From positions 429,226-493,225 of the forward strand of contig CAWJIM010000024.1 in NCBI GenBank assembly GCA_963842945.1: a stretch of 64,000 bases of DNA. Reading direction: 5' to 3'. The position numbers and the translations under genes are program-made. Of the stretch, positions 4,806 through 46,204 are shown one piece after another (the first letter of the stretch is position 1; each line of letters starts with the position of its first letter). The stretch comes from an uncultured Gemmatimonadales bacterium. GTDB lineage: Bacteria > Gemmatimonadota > Gemmatimonadetes > Gemmatimonadales > GWC2-71-9. A model generated the notes under the pieces. The model made no database searches and had not been told where the DNA came from. It was given only the letters and a program-made list of their open reading frames with translations.

Positions 4806-6727
4806 GCGAGCGATACTCGGATTCGGCAGAAGAGGCCCTCACCGAGACTGGTGACGGCACTCCGGAGGAAGCGGCGCTCTCCCAACCGCCGCCGGAGTCC
4901 GATCCTGAATGGTCCGGGCTGCTGGAGAACCTCCTCACCTCGCGCGGTTTCGATTTTCACGGATACAAGGCGGCGTCGCTGGCGCGGCGCATCCGCAAGC
5001 GCATGGAGTCGGTCGGGGTGGAGAGCTTTGCGGCATACCAGGAGTATCTCGAGGTCCACCCGAACGAGTTTGCCACGCTGTTCAATACCATCCTCATCAA
5101 CGTCACCAGCTTCTTCCGCGACCCGGCCGCGTGGGAGGTGGTACGTACGGTGGCTGTTCCTGAAGTCCTGGCCGCCAAGGCTCCCGGTGAGCCGCTCCGG
5201 GCCTGGAGCGTCGGCTGTGCTACGGGAGAGGAGGCCTACACCCTCGCCATGATCCTGGCAGAGGAGCTGGGGCTGGACGAGTTCCGGGATCGGGTAAAGA
5301 TCTACGCCACCGATGTGGACGAGGACGCGCTCAACACCGCTCGGCATGCCGCCTACAGCGATCGCCAGGTGGAAGGCGTCCCGCCGGAGCTGCTGACCAA
5401 GTACTTCGAGAAGGTGGACGGGCTCAATCTCTTTCGGAAGGACCTCCGGCGGCAGGTCATCTTCGGCCGTCACGACTTGATCAACGACGCGCCCATCTCG
5501 CGCATCGACCTGCTCACCTGCCGTAACACGCTGATGTACCTGAATGGAGAAACCCAGGCCCGGGTGCTTTCCCGCCTGCACTTTGCCTTGAACGACGGAG
5601 GATTTCTCCTCCTGGGCCGGGCCGAGACGCTGATGGCTCATGGTCACAGCTTCGTGTCGGTAGACCTGAAGCGGCGGCTGAGCCGGAAAGGCGCCCGTCG
5701 AACCCAGGCCGATCCGGGTTTTCCGGAACGGGAGCGCAGGAGCGGAGCACCGGAAAGCATGGACAGTCATCTGCAGATGGCGGCGTTGGAGGCAAGCCCG
5801 GTGGCTCAGATCGTGGTGGATGCTGCCGGGCAGGTGGTGATCGCCAACGATCGCGCGCGGGAGCTCTTCGCTCTCCGGCAATCGGACGTCGGCCGGCCCC
5901 TCCGGGATCTTCCCCTGTCCTACCGTCCGCTGGAGCTGCGCTCCCTGATCGAGCGGGCGGAGGCCGAGAGGCGCAACGTCGGCATCAAGGATGTCGAGTG
6001 GCGCACGCCCTCAGGCGACTCGCGCTGGCTCGACCTCCAGATCGCTCCGCTCACCGACGGACCGGGTAGCCTGCTGGGCACCATTCTCACCTTTTCCGAT
6101 ACCACTGCCTATCGCCGGCTGCAGCGAGAGCTGGAGCAATCCCATCAGGAGCTGGAAACGGCCTACGAGGAGCTCCAGTCTACCAACGAGGAGCTGGAGA
6201 CCACCAACGAGGAGCTCCAGTCTACGGTGGAGGAACTGGAGACCACCAACGAGGAGCTCCAGTCGACCAATGAAGAGCTGGAGACCATGAACGAGGAGCT
6301 CCAGTCCACCAATGAAGAGCTCCAGACCATGAACGACGAGCTCCGGCAGCGGGGCGAGGACCTGAACACCTCCAACGCCCTTCTCCAATCCGTGCTGGCC
6401 AGTCTGCGAGGTGGAGTGGCCGTGGTGGACCCCGAGCTCAGGGTGCTGGCCTGGAACCCTCAAGCCGAGGAGCTCTGGGGACTCCGAGAGGAGGAGGTCG
6501 AGGGCAAGCATCTGCTCAATCTGGACATCGGTCTGCCGCTCGAACGGCTGCGGCCCCTGCTCCGAAGCTGTCTGGGGGGAGAAGGTGGAAACCAGATGCT
6601 TGACGCGGTCAATCGGCGGGGCAAGACCATCCGCTGCCAGGTGACCTGCACTCCGCTCCGGGCCGACGGCAAAGGGGTTGGTGGAGCAATTCTGTTGATG
6701 GAGCACTCCGCCGATGGCAGCGCCTGA
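4802..6727 (+). CDS. cheR: CheR-type methyltransferase with PAS domains and coiled-coil repeats
   Basis: INVTSFFRD, WSVGCATGEEAY, IYATDVD, CRNTLMY; EELQSTNEELET repeats; two PAS-like regions. Confidence 0.9.
   Translation: MSERYSDSAEEALTETGDGTPEEAALSQPPPESDPEWSGLLENLLTSRGFDFHGYKAASLARRIRKRMESVGVESFAAYQEYLEVHPNEFATLFNTILINVTSFFRDPAAWEVVRTVAVPEVLAAKAPGEPLRAWSVGCATGEEAYTLAMILAEELGLDEFRDRVKIYATDVDEDALNTARHAAYSDRQVEGVPPELLTKYFEKVDGLNLFRKDLRRQVIFGRHDLINDAPISRIDLLTCRNTLMYLNGETQARVLSRLHFALNDGGFLLLGRAETLMAHGHSFVSVDLKRRLSRKGARRTQADPGFPERERRSGAPESMDSHLQMAALEASPVAQIVVDAAGQVVIANDRARELFALRQSDVGRPLRDLPLSYRPLELRSLIERAEAERRNVGIKDVEWRTPSGDSRWLDLQIAPLTDGPGSLLGTILTFSDTTAYRRLQRELEQSHQELETAYEELQSTNEELETTNEELQSTVEELETTNEELQSTNEELETMNEELQSTNEELQTMNDELRQRGEDLNTSNALLQSVLASLRGGVAVVDPELRVLAWNPQAEELWGLREEEVEGKHLLNLDIGLPLERLRPLLRSCLGGEGGNQMLDAVNRRGKTIRCQVTCTPLRADGKGVGGAILLMEHSADGSA
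6147..6342 (+). repeat. coding 21/42-bp tandem repeat (EELQSTN/EELETTN heptads)
   Basis: gaggagctccagtctaccaac / gaggagctggagaccaccaac units repeated inside cheR. Confidence 0.85.
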
Positions 6728-9023
6728 CCTCAGCCCGGACCGGGTGGACCAAGACCCGGAACAGCTAGCGGTCACCGAAGAGATCCGGGAAAGCGCCGAG
6801 CTTGCCCGCCAGGCTCGTGAACGAGAGCGGCAGGGGGCCGAGGATCTACGGGAGGATCAGGAACGAGCCCGCCAAGCCGGAGAGGAGCAGCGCAGCTGGA
6901 CCGAAGCGGCCCGAGCGATGGCCGATGAGTTCCGGACAGCAAAGGAGCAGCTGCGAGCCGCAGCGGAGGACGCCCGATCCTCGGCGGAAGACGCCCGTCA
7001 GGCTGCCGAGGAGCTTCGCCGCTCCACCGAGGTTGCCCTCAAGGCCGCATACGATCAGCTCGCCATTCTGCAGGAGGCCAGGGAGACCTTGGCGCGCTAC
7101 TGGGAGGAGCCGCGCGCCTCAGGGACACTGCGGGCGGAGGACATGAGTCCCGAGGAATTGGGGAACCGGCTCCGCCTCGCGCACGATCGCATCGCCTCTC
7201 TCACGCAACGCGAAGATGTGGACGCCGAGCAGGCGGCCGACGATCTACGCTCGGCCCTGGAGGAGCTGCGGGTAGCGGACGAGGAGCTCCGGACCCAGAA
7301 CGAAGAGCTGGCTACCGCCCAGCTGGACGTCGAGGCCGGGCGCGGTCGCTACTATGAGCTCTTCGACCTGGCGCCAGACGCCTACTTGGTGACAAACCTG
7401 GCGGGCATCATCGACGAAGCGAATCTGTCGGCCACGAAGCTGCTGGGTATTGCGCGGGAGTTTCTGGTCGGGAAAGCTCTCGCGTCCTATATCGCCACGG
7501 ACGATCGGGTCCGGTTCCGGTCGTTGCTGAGCGCCCGCGACCGCGGCGGCAGCAGTCGTCCCCTGGCCTTCAGGATCAGGGGTCGGGGTGGAACCAACCT
7601 GCACGTGGAGCTGACCTACTCGATCATCGACGACGAGCGGGGCAATCCGACCGGGTTCCGCTGGATCGTCCGGGACGTCACCGAGCAGGAGCGCATGGCC
7701 CGGCAGATCCGGTCGCTCAATTCCGAGCTGGAGTTTCGCGTGGCCGAGCGCACCGGCGCTCTCGAGGCAGCGCAAGAGTTGTCCGAGGAACTGTTGCAGC
7801 GGGAGCAGACCGCGCGCCGCGCCGCCGAGGCCAGCGAGGCCCAGTCCCGGCACGTGCAGAAGCTGGAGAGCATCGGAGTGCTGGCCGGAGGCATTGCCCA
7901 CGATTTCAATAATCTGCTTCATGTCATCCTGGGGAATGCGGACATCGCGCTGAGTCGCCTTGCCGGGCGCTCTCCCGCCCGCGAGCCGCTGGAAGAAGTG
8001 ATTCGGGCCACGATCCGCGCCGCCGACCTCACCCGGCAGATGCTCGCCTACTCGGGTAAGGGCGCCTTCGTCGTTCGCAACCTGGATCTCTCCAGTGAAG
8101 TGAGAGAGATGGCGACCCTGCTGCGCACCGCCATCAGCAAGCAGGCCACGCTGGTGTGGGAACTGGCCACCGATCTCCCTGCGGTAAAGGCCGACGCCAC
8201 CCAGATCCGGCAGATCGTGATGAATCTGATCACCAACGCCTCCGACGCCCTGCAGAACGCCGGCGGCACCATCACGCTTCGAACCGGCGTGCTCGACCGA
8301 AGCCAGCTCGACGATCCCGCCTTCGGACCGCCGATCGGCGAGGTCGAGCCGGCAGCCGACTACCACGAGGAAATGGTCTACCTCGAGGTCCACGATACCG
8401 GAGCCGGAATGACACCGGATACTCTCCGCCGCATCTTCGACCCTTTCTTCTCCACCAAGTTCTCCGGCCGGGGGCTCGGACTGGCGGCGGTGATGGGCAT
8501 CGTCCGGAGCCACCAGGGACTGATTCGTATCCGCACCGAGCCGGATCGAGGCACCAGTTTTCAGGTCCTCTTCCCGTCCGTGACCGGGAAGGTGATGAAA
8601 CAGGGGAAGCCATCCGCGGCCCGGAGCGAGTGGCGGGGTGAGGGAACGATCCTCGTGGTAGAAGACGAGGCAGACGTACGGGAAGTGGCCGAGCGCATCC
8701 TTCAGGATTTCGGCTTCGAAACGATCCCGGCGGGCGACGGACGGGATGCCCTCGACCTCATGGAGAGCAGAGGCAGCGAGGTTACAGCGATCCTGATGGA
8801 CCTTTCGATGCCGAGAATGGGAGGTCAGGAGGCCCTGCGCCAGCTACGAGATAGCTGGCCCGACCTGCCCGTCATCATGATGAGCGGGTACACCGAGGAG
8901 TCCGTCGCGCCGCAGTTCAGTGATGCCGGCCCCGGCGTCACCGCGTTCCTGCAGAAGCCCTTCTTCGCGGAAGACCTCATTGGGGTCCTTCGTCGCGTTC
9001 TGGTCACCGCCGGACTCAGTTAG
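6714..9023 (+). CDS. hybrid histidine kinase: long Glu-rich coiled coil, PAS, HisKA, HATPase, REC
   Basis: GGIAHDFNN, NASDA, FDPFFSTK, GRGLGL, ILVVEDE, FLQKPF. Confidence 0.9.
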   Translation: MAAPDLSPDRVDQDPEQLAVTEEIRESAELARQARERERQGAEDLREDQERARQAGEEQRSWTEAARAMADEFRTAKEQLRAAAEDARSSAEDARQAAEELRRSTEVALKAAYDQLAILQEARETLARYWEEPRASGTLRAEDMSPEELGNRLRLAHDRIASLTQREDVDAEQAADDLRSALEELRVADEELRTQNEELATAQLDVEAGRGRYYELFDLAPDAYLVTNLAGIIDEANLSATKLLGIAREFLVGKALASYIATDDRVRFRSLLSARDRGGSSRPLAFRIRGRGGTNLHVELTYSIIDDERGNPTGFRWIVRDVTEQERMARQIRSLNSELEFRVAERTGALEAAQELSEELLQREQTARRAAEASEAQSRHVQKLESIGVLAGGIAHDFNNLLHVILGNADIALSRLAGRSPAREPLEEVIRATIRAADLTRQMLAYSGKGAFVVRNLDLSSEVREMATLLRTAISKQATLVWELATDLPAVKADATQIRQIVMNLITNASDALQNAGGTITLRTGVLDRSQLDDPAFGPPIGEVEPAADYHEEMVYLEVHDTGAGMTPDTLRRIFDPFFSTKFSGRGLGLAAVMGIVRSHQGLIRIRTEPDRGTSFQVLFPSVTGKVMKQGKPSAARSEWRGEGTILVVEDEADVREVAERILQDFGFETIPAGDGRDALDLMESRGSEVTAILMDLSMPRMGGQEALRQLRDSWPDLPVIMMSGYTEESVAPQFSDAGPGVTAFLQKPFFAEDLIGVLRRVLVTAGLS

Positions 9024-33902: not shown

Positions 33903-34904
33903 ATGACGATCAAGCTCGCGGGTCTTTTCCTCCTCCTCGGCGCCGGAACCGCCGAGGCACAAAAAGATTCGGTCTGGATCCGGAATGGAGACCGGATCAC
34001 CGGAGAGGTGAAGTCGCTTTCGCGCGGATTGCTCAAGTACTCGACCGACGACCTCGGCACCATCTACATCGAGTGGGACAAGGTCGACCGGATCAGCACC
34101 TCCACCGTCGTGGAAGTCCGGCTGGCCACGGGCCACAAGTTTTACGGGCGCCTGGGGTTGGCTCCCACCGGCCTGCTGGCCCTCGCGGCCGACACCCTCC
34201 GGATCTCAGACATCGTGGGCATGACGCCGATCCAGGGGAAATTCCTGGCTCGGCTGAATGGATATTTCGACCTCGGGTTCTCCTTCCAGAAAGCCCATGG
34301 CGCAGTTCAGCTCTCGACCGGCGGCCGAGTGCAGTACCGGGCTCCGAGCGCGGAGACCACGCTCGATCTCACGGGCTACATCGAGGATCGGGATGACGCG
34401 TCCAAAAGCTCGCGCCTGTCCACTGCACTGACCGAGCGGCTGTTCCTGAGTAGACGATGGAGCACCGGTTTCGTGGTCGGTTATGACCGAAACGATGAGC
34501 TCGATCTGTCGGGGCGGGCACGGCTGGTTGGCTTCGGAACCCGAATACTGGCGCAGTCCAACCATATCGAGTTTCTGACCAGCGTTGGCATGGTGCTGAA
34601 TCGGGAGCGGTACTTCACCACCGATTCGACGACAACCGGGGTCGAGGGTTTGCTCGGCGTCGCATTCCGCGCGTTCCGCTATGACCAGCCCAAGCTCGAT
34701 GCCTCGTTGACCAGCCAGGCATACCCCAGCTTCGTGGTGCAGGGCCGGGTAAGACTGCAGAGCGATCTACGAGTATCCTACGAATTATTGAAGGACTTCA
34801 TGCTGACCGGTACGCTGTTCGATACCTACGACAGCAAACCGCCGGTGGAGGGCGCTCCGAAGAACGACTACGGCACCACGCTCGCGATCACCTGGACCTA
34901 CTGA
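33903..34904 (+). CDS. DUF481-like outer-membrane beta-barrel protein
   Basis: Signal peptide AEA-Q; NGDRITGEVK N-domain; beta strands; terminal LAITWTY. Confidence 0.75.
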   Translation: MTIKLAGLFLLLGAGTAEAQKDSVWIRNGDRITGEVKSLSRGLLKYSTDDLGTIYIEWDKVDRISTSTVVEVRLATGHKFYGRLGLAPTGLLALAADTLRISDIVGMTPIQGKFLARLNGYFDLGFSFQKAHGAVQLSTGGRVQYRAPSAETTLDLTGYIEDRDDASKSSRLSTALTERLFLSRRWSTGFVVGYDRNDELDLSGRARLVGFGTRILAQSNHIEFLTSVGMVLNRERYFTTDSTTTGVEGLLGVAFRAFRYDQPKLDASLTSQAYPSFVVQGRVRLQSDLRVSYELLKDFMLTGTLFDTYDSKPPVEGAPKNDYGTTLAITWTY

Positions 34905-34916
34905 CTTCCGATCAGG

Positions 34917-35936
34917 TCAATGATGGTGTTCCGCGGAGTGATGGTGCCCGGATCCGTTCATCGAAGCAGTCATAGCACCATGCGTACGCACGTCCTGCAA
35001 GTAGACGGAATCTCCCCGAGCGACTGTGGGCCATGCGTCGCCGTCGTCGGGCAGCACGATTCCGCCCAGAGCACCCATCCCTCCGTCTTCCAGCACCTTC
35101 CCCGTCGGATTGTCATACTCGGCGGTGAGCCGATACAGATGATCGGGGCTCAGCCGGACGCCGAGCGGCAGGAAGTAATGAATGGGCATGCCGACGACCT
35201 CGCCCTTGTCGTCGAGTTTGGGGCGGGCCTCCCAGAGCACTTTTCCGGCCGAGATGTCCTCGAGCTTCAGGCCGGTGCCGTATTCATGCAGGTGGCTTCC
35301 AGCGGCGAGCAGCCGTGCCGCGACCGCCGGGCGGCCTTCCCAGCTCCGGGAGGATCGGCCCGGCGGCAAGTCGAAGGCGTGCCGACCCGCCGGTGGCATC
35401 ACGTCCAGATACACCGGACGGATCCCGACGGGCCGGAGCCATGACGTGGACGGGGTCAGGCCCAGCCGCACGCGAACTTTCACACCGTGGTGCTCTTTAG
35501 CGGTCGGATTGTGCAGCATGGCGGTGACCAGGAGACTGTCACCGCGATGGACCGGATAGCCGAGGAACCAGGGAAGGCCGTAGGGCTTGGTCTCGGATCC
35601 CGCCGCACCGATGCGAAGTCTGATCTGGCTGAAGAGCTCCCGCTGCTCCGGCGCAATCAGATTCAGGTGGTGAAGGGCTCCAGGGAGCTTCTCGCCTCGC
35701 TCGTCCACCACGTCGAACGCGATGCTGCGGAGCCAGCCTTCGACCGGCAACGCGAGCGTGAGCGGCCGGGGCTGCTCCATCTCGTCGTGGCCGGCAGCGG
35801 ACGGCAGGTGGAAGGGTCCCAGCTCGATAGTGTACTCCTCGGTGGGCCCAGCGGCCGCCGCACCGAGGATGACCGCCAAAGCAGCGGCCAGGGCGAGCCA
35901 GCGCCAGCGCCGGCGAGCAAGGATTTTCCTCACCAT
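34917..35936 (-). CDS. exported protein resembling copper type II (PHM/DBH-like) monooxygenase
   Basis: Signal peptide; LHHLNL, SHLHEYG, late Met (GGMG); His-rich C-terminus. Confidence 0.55.
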   Translation of the reverse strand: MVRKILARRRWRWLALAAALAVILGAAAAGPTEEYTIELGPFHLPSAAGHDEMEQPRPLTLALPVEGWLRSIAFDVVDERGEKLPGALHHLNLIAPEQRELFSQIRLRIGAAGSETKPYGLPWFLGYPVHRGDSLLVTAMLHNPTAKEHHGVKVRVRLGLTPSTSWLRPVGIRPVYLDVMPPAGRHAFDLPPGRSSRSWEGRPAVAARLLAAGSHLHEYGTGLKLEDISAGKVLWEARPKLDDKGEVVGMPIHYFLPLGVRLSPDHLYRLTAEYDNPTGKVLEDGGMGALGGIVLPDDGDAWPTVARGDSVYLQDVRTHGAMTASMNGSGHHHSAEHHH

Positions 35937-35946
35937 CCCTGGGCTC

Positions 35947-36155
35947 GCTCCCAGGCCCGCACCCGCTGGCGGCGCGTCGAACACCTCTCGTAGTTTCCCT
36001 TTCGCACTTCCTCGCTAGCCTCGGGCGTGAGTAAAACCCCACAGCGGACGATACATCTCGAAATATTTTCGCGACCTCGTCCCAGCTTATATCGAAGTAC
36101 ACGTGGCGCAAGGCCGCGCCCAAATGATAATGGTCTTGGGGTGCCGCCGCAGCAG
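35947..36155 (-). pseudogene. internally deleted duplicate of the 3' part of the neighbouring amidohydrolase gene
   Basis: 35947-36062 matches 37112-37229; 36071-36116 is identical to 37357-37402; 36118-36155 matches 37514-37551. Confidence 0.9.
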
Positions 36156-36214
36156 GGCTCCTGCGCGACGGCCTGAGCGTGCCGGCCACCAGCCCGAGAG
36201 CTGAAAAAGGTCCG

Positions 36215-36976
36215 CTACCGTGACGACTGTGCCTGCCATTCAAGCTCCTCAGCCAGAATGGGGATACCGAGATTGCTCGCCTGGATACCCTGGGCGACAC
36301 AGATCTTGAGCACGTCCATGATCTCCTCTACCGTCGCGCCGAGCTTCAGGGCCGTCTGGATGTGCCGGCGAGTTCCGGGCGCGTACATGTGCGTAATCGA
36401 CGCATCGACGGCGATGCTCAGGAATTCCGCCAGCTTAGGCGAGAATACGCCGCTGGTGTAAACCGGGAGGCTGACCGCGATGATCGCTTCCGTCCATGCC
36501 GGGTCAATCTCGAAGAACGCGTCCCATGCCGGATTCCACTGGCCCCCGGCTTTCATCTTGTCGCAGACCGGCGTGGCCGCCTGGTTCCGAGTCGGCTTCA
36601 CACCGGCCGCCTTCGCTTCTTCCAACAGAATCGGCGCGCCCAGGCTGCAGGTATGGATCGACAGCAGAGACGCGATCTTGAGGACCATCAGGATCTCGTC
36701 GCGGGTCGCGCCGGCCCCGAGTGCGCCGCGAATGTGGCGGCGGGTTCCCTCAGCGCTCAAGTTGGTGCAAGCAGCATTCACCGCAATGCTGATCAGCTCC
36801 ACGTCTTTGCGTGGCAGTACGCCGCTGGTCCACGGGTCTCTGGACATCTCGAGGCATCGATCGACCCATGCCGGTTCCCATACGCGAAACTGGGCCAGCG
36901 CAGAGCTGCCCCAGGGGCCGGTTTCCTCCGTTTGATCGCTTCGTGTTGCCCTCGCGGGAGCCTTCAAGCCGCTCAT
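36215..36976 (-). CDS. carboxymuconolactone decarboxylase (CMD/AhpD) family protein with two domains
   Basis: ELISIAVNA..RRHIRGALGAGATRDEI and EFLSIAVDA..RRHIQTALKLGATVEEI. Confidence 0.85.
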   Translation of the reverse strand: MSGLKAPARATRSDQTEETGPWGSSALAQFRVWEPAWVDRCLEMSRDPWTSGVLPRKDVELISIAVNAACTNLSAEGTRRHIRGALGAGATRDEILMVLKIASLLSIHTCSLGAPILLEEAKAAGVKPTRNQAATPVCDKMKAGGQWNPAWDAFFEIDPAWTEAIIAVSLPVYTSGVFSPKLAEFLSIAVDASITHMYAPGTRRHIQTALKLGATVEEIMDVLKICVAQGIQASNLGIPILAEELEWQAQSSR

Positions 36977-37094: not shown

Positions 37095-38211
37095 CTAGTA
37101 CTTCTGCGCCTGCTCCCAGGCCCGCACCCGCTGGCGGGCCGCGTCGAACAGCCGCTCGTAGTTTCCCTTTCGCACCTTCTCGCTAGCCTCGGGCGTGAGC
37201 AGGGCCCACAGCGGACGATACATCTCGAACACCGCGTAGTACTGGGTCGTGTCTCGCGGCGCCACCACATCCGAGCCGAACAGGAATCGATCGGGGTAGC
37301 GGTCGATCAGTGCGGCTGCGCGGCGTGTGGTCTCTGGCGTCGCCAGGAGATACTTGGCGACCTCGTCCCAGCTTATATCGAAGTACACGTGGCGCAAGGC
37401 CGGGTCGGAAAGAATTCCCTCCACGATCACGCCCTGATTGGGATTCCGTTCCGTCGACCGGCGCCGAGGCGGAGGCCTGGATCGGGCGCACCACCCGCCC
37501 CAGTCCCATGTGGGCCCAGATGATAGTCGTCTTGGGGTGCCGCCGCAGCAGCGCCTTCATCTGGGTGAGGAAGACCGGCTCGGCCCCCGCTTTGGCGAAC
37601 GGCATGTCCATGTCGTTGTGGATCAGTACGACCAGTCCCACCTCCCCGGCAAAATCGAGAATCCGGTCCAGGGCTGGATCGGTGAGGCTGGCGACATCGC
37701 CCGCGATCTTGGATGAAACGAACTCCTTGTGAATGGTGAATTCGCCGATCCCGGTGAAGACACCGGGAAAGGTCTTGAGCACCCGGCGGATGTGGTCGGC
37801 GGCGTACATGTCGGCGGGGTTGAAGCCCGTGATCATCGGATCGAGCCGGGCGCGCTCCTCCGGCTTGAGCGACCGGTACGCCATCGCGATGAAGGCGTCG
37901 GTGAAGGAGTAGTAGTAGAGCGGAGCGTCGCTCTGCAGATAGTAGGTCGGAGCGTAGTCGCCCGAATTTTCGTGGGACCAGGTCTGCTGCAAGGGAATGC
38001 CGAACAGGGTGGACCGGTGGGCCCGCTTCCCCATGATCCGGAGGAAGTCGCGGACGTCGGTGCCTTCCTGGATGTAGTTGGTCAGGTGGAAGTGGACGTC
38101 GTCGAAGTCATCGCTGCTGCCGCCGGCTGCCGCCTGCGCCGCGAGCAGCCGGGGGACCACGCAGGAGAGCGACGAGAGAGGCTCGCTGCCACATAGTCGG
38201 CTCTCGCTCAC
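37095..38211 (-). CDS. amidohydrolase family metalloenzyme, probably exported (frameshift near 37435)
   Basis: DVHFH, GIGEF, LIHND, WAHMG, FGSD; N-terminus ends LLAAQAAA. Confidence 0.85.
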
Positions 38212-39560
38212 AGCAGGATATCCGTGCCGATGGAGATGGTCGTGCCGCTCTGGCCCGAGGTGTAGAACCCGAAGTTCGATGCCGCCGGGCTCTTCTCCAC
38301 CTTTATGAGGTGCAGGTTCAGCCGCCAGCTGCGAGTCCGGCTGGGATAAACGCTCGCGCCACCGGAAACCTCCCAGGGCTGACGGTCGAAGTCGTCGAAT
38401 ACGTGGCCGTAGGTGAGGTACACCCCCACCAGGCGCGGCACCACCATGTGCATTCCCTGGACCTGAAATCCCTTATCTACGATAGACTCCAGCGCGAAGG
38501 GACCGGTGGTCGCCAGAAAGTCGGAGAGCTTGCGCACGTAGAACTCGCTCTGGAAGGAGAAGCCGCGATACTTGAAGCCGGCATCGAGGGCGAGCTCGTC
38601 GTAAGTCAGCTTATCCACCGTTACCCCGAGGGCGAGAGCGTCGGCATCGAACGGATTGATTCCATCGGAGAGCTTGATCTGGGTGGCGTTGGGCGGCGCG
38701 GTCTCCGACGCATAACGCGATTCACGGCTGTGAGCGGCCGATGCGCCGAATTGCGTGGCCAGCTTGCTGTGGTACTCGAAGTCGCCCAGTCCATTCCGGG
38801 CTCCAAACTCGCCCGTGCTCGGCCTCCAGACGACGCTCGCGCTGTACGCCATGTCGCGGGTGTCGTTGGCGGCGGTGGTACCGAGCTGGCTGATGTTGGT
38901 GTTGACCGAGGCCGTGTACCAAAAGCGGTCGATCGGCTGCCCGGTGACGAAAACGCCGGAGGAGAACCCGCCGCGAAAGAAGTCCTCGGCCATCTGCCGG
39001 TCGCTGGAGCCCCAGAAAGGCCAGGAGCCCTGCATCGAGCGCGCGGTGAGATTGGGTGCGATCCCGACTCCAATGCCGATGGCCTTGTTGAACCGGTAGT
39101 TCAGGTTCCCGAACAGCAGGGTCTGCTGCGTGGTGGGCAGCGACCAGAGCGAGATGTTGTAGCGGAACTTGGGGTCGTAGAAGAACCCGGTGAGCCAGAC
39201 GAAGGTCCGGTGCCAGTTGAGGTCGTTGCGTGCCTTGACCGCGCGCTCCCGGCCCAGATGGTCCGTGAAGGTCTGACCTTCCGACATCTGATTCATGTAG
39301 CGGAACACCGCGTAGAAGCTGACGTTGAGGCTGGCGATCTTGGTCTTGGCGATGTCGAAGCCTTTGGCCGGGGTAAACTCGCCCGCGATGTTGTTGGGAA
39401 AGGTTACATCCGATATGGCGGTGGTGTCGTTGGGCTCGCGGCCCGCCTCGTCCTGGGCCAGCGCCCCAGCGGGGAGGATCGCGATCGCAACCAGACCAGC
39501 AATGAGTACCGCACCTGCGGTGCACAGCCAGTTGTGCCGTGCCGTGGTCGCTGGGCGCAT
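38208..39560 (-). CDS. outer-membrane beta-barrel / porin-like protein
   Basis: Signal peptide ALA-Q; aromatic-rich amphipathic strands throughout. Confidence 0.65.
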   Translation of the reverse strand: MRPATTARHNWLCTAGAVLIAGLVAIAILPAGALAQDEAGREPNDTTAISDVTFPNNIAGEFTPAKGFDIAKTKIASLNVSFYAVFRYMNQMSEGQTFTDHLGRERAVKARNDLNWHRTFVWLTGFFYDPKFRYNISLWSLPTTQQTLLFGNLNYRFNKAIGIGVGIAPNLTARSMQGSWPFWGSSDRQMAEDFFRGGFSSGVFVTGQPIDRFWYTASVNTNISQLGTTAANDTRDMAYSASVVWRPSTGEFGARNGLGDFEYHSKLATQFGASAAHSRESRYASETAPPNATQIKLSDGINPFDADALALGVTVDKLTYDELALDAGFKYRGFSFQSEFYVRKLSDFLATTGPFALESIVDKGFQVQGMHMVVPRLVGVYLTYGHVFDDFDRQPWEVSGGASVYPSRTRSWRLNLHLIKVEKSPAASNFGFYTSGQSGTTISIGTDILL

Positions 39561-39625
39561 CCGCGTTCTCCGTTCAGGGTTTTAATAGGTCGGCCGATAT
39601 ACAGCTGCGGGTGTTGCCGGCGCGG

Positions 39626-40898
39626 TCAGAACTCCATCTGCAGCCGGCTCTGGAAAAACTGGGTGTTGCCCTTCAGGGCAAACCGATCGAGCCTGCCGTA
39701 ACCGTAGATGAGCTCCAGCCGGAGGAAGTCGGCCAGGTGCCAGTTGACCATGGGAGTCAGCCGCCAGAAGGTTCCGCCCTGCAGGGTCCCGCCATTGAAG
39801 TCGCTGTAGGAGAACCGCAGCAGGACCTCCACCGCCCCCGGCCCGCCCTCGAACACCGTTCTCCTCGGTGACACCTGCCTGAAGTAGCCGCCCACCGTGT
39901 TGTAGGAGCGGGTCTCGCCCGTGATCAGCCAGTTGGCGAAGATGTCGCCGCCGTGAAAGACGGGGTCGCCGGTTTCCGGTGAGCTGGCCTTCTCCCAGTA
40001 ATACTCGGTGCCGAACAGCCAGGGACCCGGGCGGTAGTACGCCTCGAATCCCAGAGAGCGTCGCCGACGTCGAGTGGAACTTGCCGGTGTCGATGAAGCT
40101 GGGCGCGTCGCTGGCTTCCGGCTTGGCCTTGAGCTGCAGGGTGTCGTTTTCCGGCTTGCCGATATGGAACGACGCCCCGATGTGAATCAGCTTACCGGCG
40201 CTGTCGGAGACCATCGGCACCCAGGCGAGACGGCCAGCGACCGCCTGATGGAAGTAGGAGAAGCTCTCGTCTTTGGACAGCCAGTCGGTGAACACGCCGA
40301 GGTTCCAGATCAGGTGTCGATTGGGCAGATAACCCAGCCACTTGATGCCGTCGGACAGGAGCGGGATTGCGTCGGAGAAGGTGAACCGCTCGGCGGTCCA
40401 GCCGTCGTATCCGGTCATCACCTTATTGAGACTGGGCCCCTCCTTGCTGCGCCCGATCCAGAAGTTTCCCCAGAGCTCCGGGACTCCCAGCATCAATCCC
40501 GTCTGGCGGACGAACCACTCGTCGACGTAGCCGTCGTACATGAACCCGGCCTGGTAGGTGAGCCGCCGCTTGGTCTTGATCCGTCCGCTGATGAGCAGGC
40601 GTGAGTCGCGGATCTTGAACCCGGGCTCGAGGTCCAACTGTTCCTTGGCGGCGGCGTCCTGGCCGTAGGTGGCGTAGTCCAGCAGGAAGCCGGCGCCGAC
40701 CCGGAGGGTAAGGAATGGCCCGTCGTATTCGTTCCATTTGACCAGACTACGGCGCGGCGGCTCGGCCTCGGACTCTCCGGCCGAGATCCCGGTTTCGAGG
40801 GTGGTATCGCGAGCGGTTGAATCCGTTTGCTGCGCGCACAGCGATGCGCCCCTCGACCAGGTGAGCGCCAGCAGAACCCACGCGAAGGAGGAGCGCAT
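39626..40898 (-). CDS. OprO/OprP-family porin (frameshift near 40048)
   Basis: Signal peptide; IRDSRLLISG, IGRSKEG, AVEVLLRFS, VNWHL, terminal SRLQMEF. Confidence 0.8.
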
Positions 40899-40913
40899 CG
40901 AAGGCTGTTCTGC

Positions 40914-42008
40914 TCAGTACTCGTCGAAGTACCGCTGGATCGTCTTCGGGTCCTTGGTCTTCAGCAGCGCCAGCCGGAGAAGCACCCGCGCCTTCTGGGG
41001 GTTCAGCCCCAGCGAGGCGACAGTGCCCAGGCTGTCGTCGTTCACCTCCACGTTCCGCCCTACCTGGCCGGTGGCCACCCGGGTCGAGCGCACGCAGACG
41101 ATCCCCTTCTTGGCCTGGGCGGCCAGGGCATCGAGCGCGCTCTTGGTCATGTTGCCGTTGCCCACACCCGCGATGACGATGCCCTTGGCGCCGGACGCGG
41201 CCGCCGCGTCGATGATCTTCCCGTCCATGTTCTCGTAGGCCATGATGATGTCCACTCGGGGCAGGACCGTGCTCTTGTCCACGCTGAACTCCGAGGTCAC
41301 GGTGTTCTTCCCGACCGGGCCCCGATACCACTCCGGCGTGCCGTAGGCGATGGTGCCGATCAGCCCCGACTGGGGAGAGAGGAAGGTCTGCACCGCGGTG
41401 GTGCTGGTCTTGGTGAGCGAGGCCGCGCCATGGATCCAGTCGTTGACCACCACCAGGACACCGCGTCCAACCGCGTCCTTGTTGGCCGCGACCGCCACCG
41501 CGTTGTAGAAGTTGAGTGGGCCGTCGGCCGAGAGCGCGGTGGATGGGCGCATCGATGCGGTCAGCACCACCGGCTTCTTCGACTTGATCACGAGGTTCAG
41601 GAAGTACGCCGTCTCCTCGATGGTGTCGGTGCCGTGGGTGATGGCCACGCCGGCGACGTCAGGCTGGGCCAGCAGCTCGTTGATCCGGGTGGCCAGCTTC
41701 ATCCACACCTGATCGTTCATGTCCTGGGAGCCGATGTTGGAGATCTGCTCGCCCCGCATGTTGGCCAGCTTCTTGGCCTGCGGTACTGCGTTGAGCAGCT
41801 GATCGACCCCCACCTGGCCGCTGGAGTAGCCGGCCTGAACGTCGCTCTCGGCTGCACCGGCTATGGTGCCGCCGGTGGCGAGCACTACGACGGTCGGCAG
41901 GTTTCCCTTGGGCGCCTCCGCGGTCGCCTGGGCGGCCACCGATGCGGTGCCGCCCGCTGCACTGAGCAGCAGGGTCAGGACGAGGGGAACTGCATTTCGC
42001 CGGTACAT
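40914..42008 (-). CDS. ansB: L-asparaginase type II (periplasmic)
   Basis: Signal peptide; ATGGTIAG, HGTDTIEETAYFL, SADGPLN, LNPQKAR. Confidence 0.95.
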   Translation of the reverse strand: MYRRNAVPLVLTLLLSAAGGTASVAAQATAEAPKGNLPTVVVLATGGTIAGAAESDVQAGYSSGQVGVDQLLNAVPQAKKLANMRGEQISNIGSQDMNDQVWMKLATRINELLAQPDVAGVAITHGTDTIEETAYFLNLVIKSKKPVVLTASMRPSTALSADGPLNFYNAVAVAANKDAVGRGVLVVVNDWIHGAASLTKTSTTAVQTFLSPQSGLIGTIAYGTPEWYRGPVGKNTVTSEFSVDKSTVLPRVDIIMAYENMDGKIIDAAAASGAKGIVIAGVGNGNMTKSALDALAAQAKKGIVCVRSTRVATGQVGRNVEVNDDSLGTVASLGLNPQKARVLLRLALLKTKDPKTIQRYFDEY

Positions 42009-42058
42009 TGAAGCCTCCTATAGCGTGAACAGAAACGGCTTTGACGTGATGACCAGCT

Positions 42059-43628
42059 CTACTTCTTGTGGTATTGGCTCCGGTCGAGGTTGGTCAGCTT
42101 GACCGGGTCCATGATGTCGGCGAGCTGCTTATCGGTCAGAAGCTTCTGCTCCCGGACGATCTCGAGGATGCCCTTCCCGCTCTTGTAGGCCTCGGCCGCC
42201 AGCTCGGTGGTCTTTTCGTAACCCAGCACCGGGTTGAGCGCGGTCACGATGCCCACCGTGGTTTCCATGTAGTGGTCCAGCACCTTCTTGTTGACCGTGA
42301 TCCCGTCCACGCAACGGGTGCGGAAGGCTATGGAGGTGTTGTAGAGCAGGTGCTGCGACTCGATCATGGCGACACCCTCGACCGGCTCGTAGGCGTTGAG
42401 CTGAAGCTGACCGCTGTGGGCGGCGAGGGTCACGGTGTAGTCGTTCCCCATGACCCGGAACGCCACGAGGTTCACCAGCTCGGGAATGACGGGATTCACC
42501 TTCCCCGGCATGATCGAGGATCCCGGCTGAAGCGCCGGAAGATTGATTTCGGCGAGGCCCGCGCGGGGGCCCGAGGTGAGCAGGATCAGGTCGCTCGCGA
42601 TCTTGGACAGCTTGACCGCGACGCTCTTCATCGCCGAGGAGTACACCACGAAGCCCTGCTGGTCCCAGGTGGCCGACAGCATGTCCGGGGCGGCCTTGAT
42701 CGGCTTGCCGGTGAGCTTGGCGAGGTGCGCCGCGGTGCGCTCGGCATAGCCTTTGGGGGCGTTGAGTCCCGTCCCGATGGCCGTGGCGCCCATGTTCACG
42801 GTGTACAGATACTTCTCCGCGTCGCGCAGCAGGGCAATCTCGCCGTCCAGCGAAGACGCAAAGGCGTGAAACTCCTGCCCCACCGTCATGGGCACCGCAT
42901 CCTGCAGCTCGGTGCGTCCCATCTTGACGATATTCATGAACTCGTTGCCCTTGGCCCGGAATGAGGCGGCCAGCTTCTCCAGCTCGGCGATGAGTTTCCC
43001 GTTCCGCAGAATCAACGCGATCTTGATGGCGGTCGGATACGAGTCGTTGGTGGACTGAGACTGGTTCAGGTCGTCATGCGGCTCGAGAACCTCGTAGTCG
43101 CCCTTCTTGTGCCCGGTCAGCTCCAGCCCGACGTTGGCCATCACCTCGTTGGCGTTCATGTTCGTCGAAGTGCCGGCGCCACCCTGGTACCAGTCCACCG
43201 TGAACTGGTCGTGGTACTTGCCCTGCAGCAGCGCATTGGCCGCCTTCTCGATGGCCGCCAGCTTGTCCTTCTTCATGGCGCCCACGTCGGTGTTGCCCTG
43301 TGCCGCGGCCAGCTTCACGATGGCCCACGCCTCGATGAACCCCGGATAGTGGTTGATCGGCACTCCCGAGATCTGGAAGTTCTCCAGCGCCCGGGCGGTC
43401 TGGACGCCATAGTAGGCGTCGGCCGGGATCTGCCTTCTCTCCCAGGAGGTCCTTCTCCGTGCGGGTGGCTCCGCCCTGGCTGGCGGGCTGAGCGGTGGGC
43501 TGCTGTGGACCCTGTGAGCCCTCGGTCGTTTGCGCAACAGCCGGCGGGGCTTCCCGGGATTTGCACCCCCAGGTGAGCCCTAATGCCAGGATCGGAGCCA
43601 GCAGCGCGCCCTGTTGTGTTCTATTCAC
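42059..43628 (-). CDS. aspA: aspartate ammonia-lyase with lipoprotein signal (frameshift near 43438)
   Basis: MNRTQQGALLAPILALGLTWGC; RTEKDLLGEK then YYGVQTARALENF, GGAGTSTNMN, SQSTND, GSSIMPGKVNP. Confidence 0.9.
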
Positions 43629-43653
43629 AGTGACACTCCTTCTTCTTCCGCGG

Positions 43654-44688
43654 CTAGCTCTTGGGCTCGACCGCGTAAGGATTGGCGTGCAGGCGGTTCA
43701 CGATCTCGATGATCGCTTTCTGCGCCCGTACGCTGTTGCCCGCATCGTCGAGTGGCGGTGAAATGACGGCGATGCCGAACTTGCCCGGCGCGACGGCGAT
43801 GATCCCGCCGCCTACGCCGCTCTTGCCCGGCAGTCCGGTGTGGTAGAGCCATTTGCCGGTGTCGTCGTACAGTCCGGCCGTCGCCATGACCGCCAGCACA
43901 TAGGGCACGTTCTTCGAGCTCATCACCGTCTTGCCGCTCACCGGGTTCTTGCCCCCGTCGGCCAGGGTGGCGGCCATGGTGGCCAGGTCCTTGGCGTTCA
44001 CGTTGATGGAGCACTGCTCGGTGTAGACGTCGGTGGCCTGGTCCGGCTTCTCCTTGATGTAGCCGTAGGCGTACATCAGGGCGCCGATGGCCTGGTTGCG
44101 CTGGTTGGTGGCGGCTTCGGACTTGAAGACTTCCTCATTCACGGCGAGCGGCCTGCCGGCAAAGGCCGAGTGCCAGTCGAGGATGCTCTTCCACACCTCG
44201 TCGCGGGTGCCGCCCTTGACCATGGAGGTGGTAGCGATGGCGCCCGGATTGACCAGGGAGTTCATCTCCGGCCCGCCCAGCGCTTTCTGGGAGAACTCGA
44301 CCGATACGATGGAGTTGAAGCGCATGCCGGTGGCGTCCACGCCGACCGTCTTCTCGATCTTCTCCGGCCCGTCCTCCTCGATCACCTTGGCCAGGGTGAA
44401 GACCTTGGAGATGGACTGGATCGAGACCTCGGTCTTGATGTCGCCCGCGGTGTAGACCTTCCCGTCGGTCGTGACCAGCGCAATGCCGAAGACCTTGGGA
44501 TCCACTTTGGCCAGCGCCGGGATGTAGTCGGCGTTCTTTCCCTCCTGCAGATTCTTGAACTTGGTGTAGGTCTCATTCAGGACCGTCGCGATCGACTGGT
44601 TCTGGCCCTGAGCCGTGAGAGCCGGCGGAACGCTGGCCCCGGCGGCCGCCAGGGCCAGGGTGAGTATTGCGCGAGAAGTCCTGATCAT
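43654..44688 (-). CDS. glsA: glutaminase A with Sec signal peptide
   Basis: MIRTSRAILTLALAAAGASVPPALTA-Q; GKNADYIPALA, SIQSISKVF, PGKSGVGGG, SPPLD..GNSVR. Confidence 0.93.
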   Translation of the reverse strand: MIRTSRAILTLALAAAGASVPPALTAQGQNQSIATVLNETYTKFKNLQEGKNADYIPALAKVDPKVFGIALVTTDGKVYTAGDIKTEVSIQSISKVFTLAKVIEEDGPEKIEKTVGVDATGMRFNSIVSVEFSQKALGGPEMNSLVNPGAIATTSMVKGGTRDEVWKSILDWHSAFAGRPLAVNEEVFKSEAATNQRNQAIGALMYAYGYIKEKPDQATDVYTEQCSINVNAKDLATMAATLADGGKNPVSGKTVMSSKNVPYVLAVMATAGLYDDTGKWLYHTGLPGKSGVGGGIIAVAPGKFGIAVISPPLDDAGNSVRAQKAIIEIVNRLHANPYAVEPKS

Positions 44689-44699
44689 GGAGATCACCC

Positions 44700-45890
44700 T
44701 TAGAAGGTCTTGGAGAAATTGTATTTGAAGGAGAACTGGACCTTGAAGATGTCCGAGCTGAATCCGTCCTCGAAGTTCGTGCGGTCGGCCCACTGGAGCT
44801 CGGCAACCGTCATGACGCCCGGGACGGGGTAGTACGCCACGTTGCCGACGACATAGTTACCGTGGCTGAAGGCGTCAGCCGTCTGAAGCTCGCTGTTGTC
44901 GATATCCACCATCGAATAGCCGATCGAGGAGCTGAACCTCTCGTTCCACGTATGGTCCAGGAACGCCACGACACCGAGGACAGGAAGCGCGACGCCCTGG
45001 ATCGGCGCGACCGGGTCGCCGGCATTTGTCTCGATTCCCACGTCGGCCGGGGCGTCGTTCATGTAGTTCTGGATGCCCTCGCCGTACACCACCGAGCCAC
45101 GGACGATATTCTGCTCACCGATCTTCACGTTGGTACTCCCGTGGATGCCCCAGCCGAGCGCGTCGCCGCTCAGGTCGAACGCGTCGGTGCCCTGGTCCTC
45201 CCACTTGATATACCGGGCAATCCCGGAGATCTCGATGTAGCCCCACTTCGTGGCGCGGCGGTATTCGGCGGAGAGGTCAGGCAGCGGGAATCTCGGTTTG
45301 ACGTCCGCGATCTCGATCCGGCCTGCCACATCTCCCTGGTCAGCGCTGGCACCCGGCCGCTCCAGCGCGATGGTCATCCGGGTGTCCCCCTGGATCGGCA
45401 TGTAGCGCAGCTGCACGTTGCGGAAGAAGACCATTCCGTTCGGCCCCCAGTATTCGACCGTGTTGGGGAACACGTCGATGTCCATGAACGGGCTCCAGGT
45501 CTGACCGGCACCCCACTTGCCCAGCTCGCCATAGGCATGCCGAAGCCGCAACGTGGTCTGCCCGGCGTCCACGCCGGTGCCGAAGAGCTCGAACTCGAAC
45601 TGGGTCTTGAGGGTGCCCACCTTGGTCGGCGTGCTGGAGCGCACGCCGAAGCGGGTCTGCCGAGCGCTGAAGAAGGCTTGGCCGTCGGGGGCGAACTGAT
45701 TCTCGAAAGCGGGGAGCTTGGTGGGCCGGACGACGTCGAACCAGGCGGGGTCGATCTGATTGACATTGTACCCGGCATCCATCATCGCGAAACCGTACAC
45801 CTCGAACGTGGATGAATCTGCGGTGCCTTGTGCCGCCATGGCCGAGGGAAGGCTGCAGAGCAGCAGGGCGGCGAAAAGACGTGCTTTCAA
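44700..45890 (-). CDS. DcaP-family trimeric outer-membrane porin
   Basis: Signal peptide; EVYGFAMMD, SARQTRFG, RLRHAYG, GQTWSPFMD, terminal FKYNFSKTF. Confidence 0.85.
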   Translation of the reverse strand: MKARLFAALLLCSLPSAMAAQGTADSSTFEVYGFAMMDAGYNVNQIDPAWFDVVRPTKLPAFENQFAPDGQAFFSARQTRFGVRSSTPTKVGTLKTQFEFELFGTGVDAGQTTLRLRHAYGELGKWGAGQTWSPFMDIDVFPNTVEYWGPNGMVFFRNVQLRYMPIQGDTRMTIALERPGASADQGDVAGRIEIADVKPRFPLPDLSAEYRRATKWGYIEISGIARYIKWEDQGTDAFDLSGDALGWGIHGSTNVKIGEQNIVRGSVVYGEGIQNYMNDAPADVGIETNAGDPVAPIQGVALPVLGVVAFLDHTWNERFSSSIGYSMVDIDNSELQTADAFSHGNYVVGNVAYYPVPGVMTVAELQWADRTNFEDGFSSDIFKVQFSFKYNFSKTF

Positions 45891-46204
45891 GGGATGGTCC
45901 TCGCAGCTGACGTGAGCACACAGACGCGTGATTCGCCTGATGGGACGACGAAGCCGGGGTAGGTCTTCTCCTGGATGGGGCTATGATAAGGCGGGAGAAA
46001 CGGATGGAGGAACTAGACCTTCGTGCAGGAATTGCCTTGAGTTATGCCATCGAGCCCAGCGTTCGGGCGGAAGAGAAGAATGGCCCGCGATGAGTGCGCA
46101 GCCTTCCCTGTCCCAATCTGATACACGTAGTGCGCCCGGACCGAACCCACCGCTTCAGGCTCAACCCCGAATCAGACTGGATCCCAGCTACCTGATCCAC
46201 GCTC

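Follow-up and report, generated by a model that had tools for sequence, protein, structure and literature searches.

Gene content of the locus

We analysed a 64,000-nt stretch of DNA (hereafter the window) from an uncultured Gemmatimonadales bacterium, and within it a cluster of seven genes that may release ammonia from glutamine, asparagine and aspartate in the cell envelope. The window is part of a genome of 4.3 Mb and 87% completeness (G000), whose nearest named relatives are Gemmatimonadales. The genes run co-oriented on the minus strand from position 45890 down to 37095 in the order dcaP, glsA, aspA, ansB, an OprO/OprP (OprO/P)-like porin gene, a third porin gene (barrel3) and an amidohydrolase gene, with intergenic gaps of 11, 25, 50, 15, 65 and 13 nt, respectively. 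An earlier note on this DNA had described seven tightly spaced co-oriented genes here, and both the family models and the gaps of 11–65 nt bore this out. All seven are single-copy in G000, the exceptions being a fumarase-like and an asparaginase-like paralogue elsewhere in the genome.

The first gene, dcaP (44700..45890), encodes a DcaP-family porin with a Sec signal (PF19577, E 8.6e-19), and glsA (43654..44688) a YbaS-type glutaminase with a Sec signal beginning MIRTSRAILTLALAAAG (PF04960; NF009020, 426 bits against a cut-off of 395). An aspartase with a lipoprotein-like signal is encoded by aspA (42059..43628; NF008909, 644 bits, cut-off 510), and a type II L-asparaginase with a Sec signal by ansB (40914..42008; TIGR00520, 437, cut-off 314), the best Protein Data Bank (PDB) match of which is 1WSA (E 1.6e-106). 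The frameshifted open reading frame (ORF) of the OprO/P-like porin in the window (39626..40898) gave no Pfam match, and its intact orthologues in two other loci (L067 and L117; loci and proteins are given here by L and P numbers) pass PF07396. The barrel3 gene (38208..39560), without a Pfam or NCBIfam match, was assigned from an AlphaFold model and Foldseek. The last gene (37095..38194) encodes an exported enzyme of the amidohydrolase superfamily, recognised by PF04909 on the intact copy of locus L086; its true start is the ATG at 38194 and the protein begins MWQRASLVALL.

Single surplus bases near 43432 (aspA), 40054 (OprO/P-like porin, net one base), 38162 and 37455 (both amidohydrolase) disrupt three of the reading frames. 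Because all four are missing from L086 and three from L029, which are the closest loci, and independent contigs omit those at 43432, 40054 and 37455/6, the four frameshifts are most likely assembly errors. The contigs of relatives come from rhizosphere and soil sequencing runs, which contained at most 15% of words; contigs from RNA libraries are relatives at 88% or more and are no proof of transcription.

Conservation as two shuffling modules

We scanned species genomes with a barrel3 alignment, which gave 599 matches, and fetched the best 80 (the 80 loci). Represented among them are Gemmatimonadota, Bacteroidota, Ignavibacteria, Myxococcota, Krumholzibacteria, Latescibacteria and Zixibacteria, together with a single Vicinamibacterales record; Pseudomonadota and other phyla lay outside the survey, and the locus sets used in this study are not de-duplicated against each other. 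Among the 80 loci, glsA and the amidohydrolase gene were each present in 75, dcaP in 64, ansB and the OprO/P porin each in 25 and aspA in 24. The earlier note had proposed a search for conserved synteny, and its expectation held for the gene set, which recurred in full in 21 of the 80 loci, but not for the window's gene order, which was found in only two, the close relatives L029 and L086. Cultured soil isolates with the full set are Adhaeribacter terreus (L063), A. soli (L069), Pollutibacter soli (L073) and Taibaiella soli (L077). Local adjacencies were kept more often: dcaP lay immediately upstream of glsA in 56 of 64 cases, aspA before ansB in 19 of 23 and the amidohydrolase gene after barrel3 in 59 of 75. 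Judged from gene content and order, the unit is made up of two modules that shuffle, a core of dcaP, glsA, porin and amidohydrolase and an accessory module of aspA, ansB and OprO/P porin. A Bacteroides locus with aspA / dcu-ansB-porin (L104) is the likely ancestor of the latter.

Searches anchored on the amidohydrolase gave a compatible picture. In Gemmatimonadota it was found in 31 of 351 genomes, and 11 of the 13 top-scoring loci had an adjoining glsA, the other two lying at contig edges; the loci without other operon genes were 15 of a second amidohydrolase subclade and 3 distant ones. In Acidobacteriota it was found in 28 of 351 genomes, and among the 19 loci fetched glsA was present in 15 of 16 top-scoring and none of 3 lower-scoring ones. 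About half of the amidohydrolase matches in these two phyla are of the module form. The amidohydrolase was also found in 2 of 351 Bacteroidota and 3 of 151 Myxococcota genomes. The distribution is patchy, since only 4 of 36 genomes of the same genus gave a glsA match.

Export signals

Export was called by a fixed rule of our own rather than by SignalP, namely a basic n-region, nine uncharged hydrophobic residues and a small-X-small site or lipobox, and was counted over genes with an in-frame start in the 80 barrel3-anchored loci and in 17 amidohydrolase-anchored loci. In the window, six N-termini pass this rule and the signal of the amidohydrolase is split by a frameshift but intact in L086, in agreement with the export signal that the earlier note had seen on every gene. 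For glsA, 68 of 69 genes in the barrel3-anchored and 16 of 17 in the amidohydrolase-anchored loci passed; for the amidohydrolase the counts were 71 of 75 and 15 of 15, and for aspA-like genes 16 of 21 and 4 of 5. Of the five aspA-like misses in the barrel3-anchored set, two are FumC genes and three are aspartases with a short start; both sets together give two FumC genes and four signal-less aspartases. None of four control glutaminases and none of five control aspartases passed, and shuffled N-terminal extensions passed at 9–17%. Among database relatives, 116 of 119 GlsA and 90 of 106 extended AspA sequences passed, with 13 of 119 AspA relatives called without an extension, several of these starting at an internal Met.

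The signal type of AspA flips between lipoprotein and cleavable even at 85–90% identity, as would be expected if selection acts on export and not on sequence. Between signal and conserved domain, neither glsA nor aspA of the window has an ATG in frame, and ribosome-binding sites precede the long starts. Signals on GlsA and AspA are kept as a property, not as a sequence, across several phyla, and the predicted envelope location of the enzymes is very probably real. The well-supported claim that GlsA and AspA are exported stands on the conserved signals and, for GlsA, on the fusion described below; it does not extend to some modules that hold a signal-less aspartase beside a DASS carrier.

The glutaminase, DcaP and their fusion

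The best PDB match of GlsA is YbaS (1U60, E 3.3e-86), in line with the YbaS-type model passed above, and its catalytic motifs (S92-x-x-K95, N147, E191, N198, Y222 and Y274) are intact and invariant in the alignment of relatives. In a quick-method tree of the 70 rows left from 90 by thinning at 88%, 62 rows formed one group with a support of 94, and signal-bearing sequences of Myxococcaceae and of L145/L149 fell outside it. A single origin of exported GlsA is therefore not established by this tree.

DcaP matched the profile of 6EUS (E 3.3e-18) and retains four constriction arginines, R80, R115, R117 and R157, invariant in 22 of 22 aligned sequences. By our count they align to Arg114/148/150/189 of Acinetobacter DcaP, in which the four arginines make the pore favour anions and the N-terminus faces the periplasm (10.1101/306035). 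Because the arginine constriction is kept, the DcaP encoded here appears better suited to the anions glutamate, aspartate and fumarate than to neutral glutamine or asparagine. Uptake of di- and tricarboxylates by DcaP porins has been described (PMC12338516, in part).

In three loci a signal, a glutaminase, a short linker and DcaP form one in-frame ORF, without a second signal before DcaP: L147 (7454-9658, minus strand), L148 (12065-14263, plus strand; 85% identical to L147) and the metagenome locus L208 (105-2417, plus strand; 66% identical to L147), each beside a free glsA. L147 and L148 are two of seven genomes examined in one family. In 80 metagenome loci found with the fusion as query, dcaP followed by glsA was seen in 59 cases and the fused order in a single one. 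Since the N-terminus of DcaP lies in the periplasm, this topology requires that the fused glutaminase be periplasmic as well, attached to the pore at the inner-facing end of DcaP. Co-folding of GlsA and DcaP with one chain each gave a score of 0.00 in two runs (mark 0.32), which speaks neither for nor against binding. Loci L140, L141, L142 and L143 carry a second, distant DcaP-like gene upstream of the core, of 26–29% identity and with a long N-terminus.

The aspartase

The aspA product exceeds the cut-off of the aspartase model NF008909 and stays below those of the fumC models. It has the motifs GGAGTS and GSSIMPGKVNPVIPE and the SS-loop signature GSSIMPGKVNP, and its N-terminus consists of a lipoprotein-like signal (LTWG-C) followed by an Ala/Pro/Gln linker. 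An intact relative, P0272, is 97% identical and 522 aa long. At the site equivalent to His188 of AspB, where His or Gln is expected of an aspartase, the window protein has Glu (GRT-E), as do 120 of 120 best relatives and all typed signal-bearing loci; five of five control aspartases have GRT-Q and FumC has GRT-H. In AspB, the carboxylate pocket is lined by His188, which also contacts the amine of the substrate (PMC11744663, in part). The signal-bearing Glu-type aspartases, from Gemmatimonadota, Bacteroidota, Latescibacterota and Acidobacteriota, formed one clade of 37 rows with a Shimodaira–Hasegawa-like approximate likelihood ratio test value of 100, in a tree made by a quick method with 9 rows outside this clade. 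The enzymes of the cluster are presumably active on their textbook substrates; for AspA acting on aspartate this is probable, at a strength that we lowered because of the Glu at the His188/Gln site.

Some modules carry a Gln-type aspartase, and the four checked (L027, L065, L117 and L153) are without a signal. Gln-type aspA was found in 10 loci, and in all six of these with downstream DNA it was followed by a DASS carrier gene; of the 24 Glu-type aspA loci, 15 had no carrier, 5 Dcu and 4 SLC13. Since the signal-less Gln-type aspA precedes DASS and most Glu-type loci are carrier-free, export of AspA and a DASS carrier look like alternative solutions in this set of loci, which are not independent of one another.

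Further candidates for gene fusion were rejected. A single AspA-AnsB ORF in L041 was a read-through artefact with the AnsB signal retained in mid-ORF, and the two-gene ORFs in L118 and L031 covered only part of one gene.

Barrel3 and the amidohydrolase

The AlphaFold model of barrel3 (mean predicted local distance difference test value, pLDDT, 60) matched OmpT, Omp32, OprO and OprP at E of about 5e-8 in Foldseek, and this model of modest confidence suggests a porin-like barrel related to OprO/P. Its neighbours in the ESM Atlas are named porin, one cluster being 100% PF07396, and at least 994 relatives were found. Among distant ones, P0521 and P0522 occur in Terriglobus roseus, one named phosphate-selective porin O and P.

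The amidohydrolase gave a TIM-barrel model of pLDDT 80, the best folds being 3IRS (Z 19.1, root-mean-square deviation 3.2, 244 aligned) and 3CJP (Z 18.3), both at 19% identity or less and themselves uncharacterised. It had no sequence match in the PDB and no NCBIfam match; its Atlas neighbours are called only 'putative amidohydrolase', and a single distant plasmid match was obtained. Over 54 aligned rows the mean column identity is 64%, with H3, H5, E120, H161 and H197 invariant and D277 nearly so; we take the HxH motif and the further His, Glu and Asp residues to be a two-metal ligand set. The second subclade (L120-L134, L156-L157) often has a lipoprotein-like N-terminus and occurs without glsA or porins.

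Behind the amidohydrolase gene in the window lie, on the minus strand (35939-36158 and 36215-36976), a gene of the carboxymuconolactone-decarboxylase family (PF02627), beyond which the 3' end of the amidohydrolase gene recurs as three degenerate fragments. This stretch is absent from L086 and L029, two sequencing runs join across it, and from this comparison it is a recent insertion with partial duplication of the amidohydrolase. A gene at 34917-35984 (minus strand) encodes a 355-aa protein without a Pfam or NCBIfam match, the counterpart of which stands directly after the amidohydrolase gene in L029. Outside the operon, a DUF481 outer-membrane protein (PF04338) is encoded at 33903..34904 on the plus strand, with a homologue in 26 of the 80 loci at variable positions.

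Carriers, neighbours and regulation

The earlier note had seen no inner-membrane transporter in the unit. This holds within the window unit and in 61 of the 80 loci, but 19 loci carry at least one (AspT 13, DASS 2, SLC13 4, Dcu 3). In G000, at 87% completeness, AspT, DASS, SLC13, Dcu and AspD queries found no tblastn match, and two Amt, one SDF carrier and many APC permeases are encoded elsewhere. GadB and GadC were absent from all 182 loci examined, G000 having only weak APC-like matches elsewhere, at 22–26%.

HdeD/DUF308 genes lie near the module in 5 of 80, 2 of 22 and 4 of 80 loci, a few loci have genes for malic enzyme, serine dehydratase and PPK2, and in L140 there is a carbonic anhydrase gene. 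A type III glutamine synthetase gene is present in 6 of the 80 loci, all from related genomes, and cytochrome bd genes adjoin the modules of L034 and L117. These minority neighbours, counted without a background rate, point to both proton and nitrogen handling. In L154 (806-6986, minus strand) an aspT-aspD-aspT-ansB group, with AspD passing TIGR03801, is joined to the core module and precedes glsA, and tblastn found the same arrangement in L182. A peptidase S51 gene, presumably cyanophycinase-like, lies between ansB and the porin in L063, L068 and L069 (about 5600-6900), and a cyanophycin synthetase gene lies beside the module in L096. A bestrophin-like membrane protein (PF14023) is often encoded within 1.2 kb of the module (L063, L066-L069, L073, L075, L097, L099, L116, L118 and L119).

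Upstream of the operon, a putative activator site with a ACGAAGGTC core, a near-palindrome, lies at 46014..46024 (minus strand), ~44 nt upstream of the likely start, which comes after a TATCAT −10 box at 45983-45988. The pattern was found in 18 of 111 high-GC upstream regions (shuffle mean 2.7, maximum 8) and, at the null level, in 3 of 60 low-GC regions; it was first spotted by eye in some of the tested regions, which makes the enrichment test partly circular. The window site is by construction the top-scoring one in G000, and a scan of that genome with the palindrome gave no interpretable regulon. The near-palindrome also lies upstream of the module in the high-GC genomes of L021, L022, L027, L035, L064, L065 and L117-L119. 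Neither a sigma-70 promoter nor a terminator exceeded the shuffle level, and FNR (36 of 141 upstream regions, null maximum 43) and CRP boxes (18 of 141, null maximum 28) were not enriched. A response regulator gene is present in 14 of the 80 loci.

Comparison with known systems

GlsA-type glutaminases and aspartases are regarded as cytoplasmic. We compared the cluster with systems that handle amides outside the inner membrane. With the Pseudomonas system of AnsB and AatJQMP/GltP/DctA it shares periplasmic amide deamidation, ammonia as the nitrogen source and an acid that is imported or left outside; the Pseudomonas system combines one asparaginase-family enzyme with an inner-membrane ATP-binding cassette transporter (PMC7962211), whereas the present cluster also exports a serine-dependent GlsA and an aspartase and has porins as dedicated partners. 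With the secreted AnsB and GGT of Campylobacter jejuni and their carriers DcuAB, DctA and Peb it shares the gain of a Sec signal, conversion of Asn and Gln outside and, for the proposed route, import of the acids; in Campylobacter, however, AspA acts on imported aspartate, GGT rather than GlsA splits Gln, and dedicated porins or an amidohydrolase are not described (PMC4178425). Some relatives of the module keep Dcu, as in Campylobacter. Helicobacter has a comparable coupled deamidase-transport system. Of the features of such deamidase-uptake systems, the exported type II asparaginase is present here; a cytoplasmic AspA acting after import is lacking in the window and found only in the Gln-type variants, and a carrier for the acid product is found in 19 of the 80 loci, with the SDF carrier of G000 lying away from the window unit.

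The acid-resistance system AR2_Q (YbaS/GlsA with GadC; PMC6250119 and PMC5695133, both in part) shares a YbaS-type glutaminase that frees ammonia from Gln. Its control glutaminases (L102 and L103) lack a signal and depend on GadC, whereas the GlsA encoded here is exported and GadC and GadB are absent from the 182 loci; with an exported glutaminase and no linked GadC, the cluster does not appear to belong to AR2_Q. The Bacteroides locus L104 likewise holds aspA, ansB and a porin together, but there, as in the aspA-dcuA locus of enterobacteria (L105), AspA has no signal, has Gln at the 188 site and stands beside a Dcu carrier. Acinetobacter DcaP (6EUS) is of the same family and shares the four arginines; the DcaP encoded here is distant and lacks the long periplasmic coiled coil (10.1101/306035, in part), and in the three fusion loci the glutaminase occupies the place of that coiled coil.

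The earlier note knew of no described system with this layout. In the open full-text literature, subscription journals and bioRxiv supplements lying outside the search, we found no description of the cluster or of a bacterial periplasmic aspartase; matches for 'periplasmic glutaminase' were mostly from Pseudomonas, one of them concerning AnsB, and one annotation reads 'exported glutaminase' (BF9343_0291). The features without a description in that search are the exported GlsA, the exported AspA and the coupling to porins, while periplasmic deamidation followed by uptake was already known from Pseudomonas and Campylobacter. The unit is, from its well-supported architecture, a real and recurrent variant of periplasmic amino-acid deamination that is apparently undescribed.

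Proposed function and rival explanations

Gene identity, catalytic motifs, signals, the fusion and co-occurrence can be read from the sequences themselves, and from these we infer the direction of flux and the purpose. Our favoured interpretation, with a probability of roughly 0.45, is an envelope-located deamination unit that feeds the cell with nitrogen and carbon by stripping ammonia in the periplasm. Amides would enter through barrel3 or general porins, and Sec-exported GlsA would convert Gln to Glu and NH3, Sec-exported AnsB would convert Asn to Asp and NH3, and exported AspA, a predicted membrane-anchored lipoprotein in G000, would convert Asp to fumarate and NH3, with the exported metallo-hydrolase (the amidohydrolase) probably supplying further amide. 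All of these enzymes would act close to the three porins, and for GlsA the most likely position is the periplasmic end of DcaP. Amt would take in the ammonium, and the acids would be imported by carriers that are generic or encoded nearby (SDF/DctA, Dcu, DASS, AspT); alternatively, with nitrogen alone in demand, the acids may leave through DcaP and the OprO/P porin, and DcaP could equally admit Asp and Glu. There is precedent for both outcomes: Pseudomonas aeruginosa uses the ammonia from periplasmic deamidation of Gln and, with Gln as sole nitrogen source, leaves more than 10 mM glutamate outside (PMC7962211, in part), and growth of C. jejuni on Asn or Gln requires secreted AnsB or GGT together with uptake carriers (PMC4178425, in part). 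The outward glutamate in P. aeruginosa, together with the periplasmic mechanism, led us to rank feeding first and relief from acid second, ahead of energy conservation at low oxygen, then a different substrate and lastly mis-called starts.

Several observations weigh against feeding. By our own reasoning, splitting Gln outside the cell risks loss of ammonia, and direct import would be cheaper under nitrogen limitation. A nitrogen-control signature is absent: sigma-54 sites (5 of 141 upstream regions, null mean 1.2, maximum 3) and a loose NtrC pattern (33 of 141, null mean 23, maximum 28) are weak and neither precedes the window operon, and no Amt was seen among the annotated neighbours, which are only partly annotated. 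GlsA is of the YbaS type, which is active in acid, and several neighbouring genes have to do with acid or protons. The amidohydrolase, linked as tightly as GlsA, is without an assigned substrate, so the real input may be another compound, and its second subclade stands alone in 15 loci. The signals were called by a home-made rule. The fusion is rare (two genomes and 1 of 80 metagenome loci) and, given its layout with a free glsA beside each copy, probably arose by tandem duplication.

Relief from acid is a possible but less probable purpose. It would be an acid-resistance system set one membrane outwards, in which Gln and Asn enter, ammonia binds periplasmic protons and the anions exit through DcaP and the OprO/P porin in place of GadC. 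The YbaS-type GlsA with its best match in 1U60 fits this, as do the activity of YbaS at pH 4–6 (PMC6250119, in part), the help that a secreted asparaginase gives Mycobacterium tuberculosis in acid resistance (PMC3930563, in part), the lack of GadC in 182 of 182 loci beside the anion-selective arginines of DcaP, and the HdeD/DUF308, AspT (13 of 80), AspD (L154 and L182), malic enzyme, serine dehydratase, PPK2 and carbonic anhydrase (L140) genes near modules. However, each of these neighbours is a small minority without a background rate, GadB is missing as well as GadC, the named hosts are mostly ordinary soil Bacteroidota, Gemmatimonadota and myxobacteria, and the survey gave no link of the module to acidic habitats. 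Moreover, neutral to alkaline conditions usually suit aspartases and type II asparaginases better, and the pH of an open periplasm would be difficult to hold at the amino-acid levels of soil. A further reading, again possible but less probable, is a porin-docked metabolon in which neutral amides come in, their ammonia is removed at the mouth of the pore, and the anion-selective porins let Glu and fumarate out with no inner-membrane step.

A role in low-oxygen energy conservation is unlikely. AnsB and AspA would supply Asp and fumarate for fumarate/succinate exchange by Dcu or for a proton-motive AspT-AspD cycle, the carrier having been lost from the window and one elsewhere being used. Dcu beside or near exported aspA in 5 loci, the AspT-AspD-AspT-ansB group before glsA in L154, the cytochrome bd genes at L034 and L117 and the seemingly ancestral Bacteroides locus L104 agree with this, but it accounts only for the accessory module, present in about a quarter of loci, G000 at its 87% completeness has no tblastn match to the carriers or AspD, and FNR and CRP boxes are not enriched. 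Less likely still, the amidohydrolase and barrel3 may handle a larger amide (a gamma-glutamyl or beta-aspartyl amide, N-acyl-Gln, pyroglutamate or isoglutamine) with GlsA finishing the reaction, and the Glu-type AspA may take an aspartate analogue; because His188 of AspB contacts the substrate amine, the clade-wide Glu there could shift specificity. The strong conservation of the amidohydrolase with its full two-metal ligand set and no solved close relative, and its place after barrel3 in 59 of 75 loci, favour such a substrate, against which no substrate-specific neighbour recurs and the motifs of GlsA, AnsB and the rest of AspA are canonical. Finally, it is very improbable that the N-terminal extensions are artefacts of mis-called starts and the enzymes cytoplasmic: the calls of 13 of 119 AspA relatives indeed lack the extension, several with an internal Met as start, but the window's glsA and aspA offer no in-frame ATG between signal and domain and have ribosome-binding sites at the long starts, the signals vary in sequence between phyla while the architecture is kept, none of the nine controls passed, and the fusion to DcaP requires export.

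Significance

Soil glutaminase, asparaginase and aspartase activities are routine measures of fertility. Exported GlsA and aspartase recur in several abundant soil phyla, and the module offers candidate genes and cultured hosts for part of the deaminating activity of soil, along with an unassigned porin family, an unassigned amidohydrolase, an aspartase whose active site is changed across a whole clade and a natural fusion of enzyme and porin. If the porin-docked metabolon is true, it would be an outer-membrane counterpart of GadC, with the Glu-188 aspartase as a subfamily adapted to the periplasm and GlsA-DcaP as a natural enzyme-porin channel, and amino-acid nitrogen in soil would be mineralised without uptake of the carbon.

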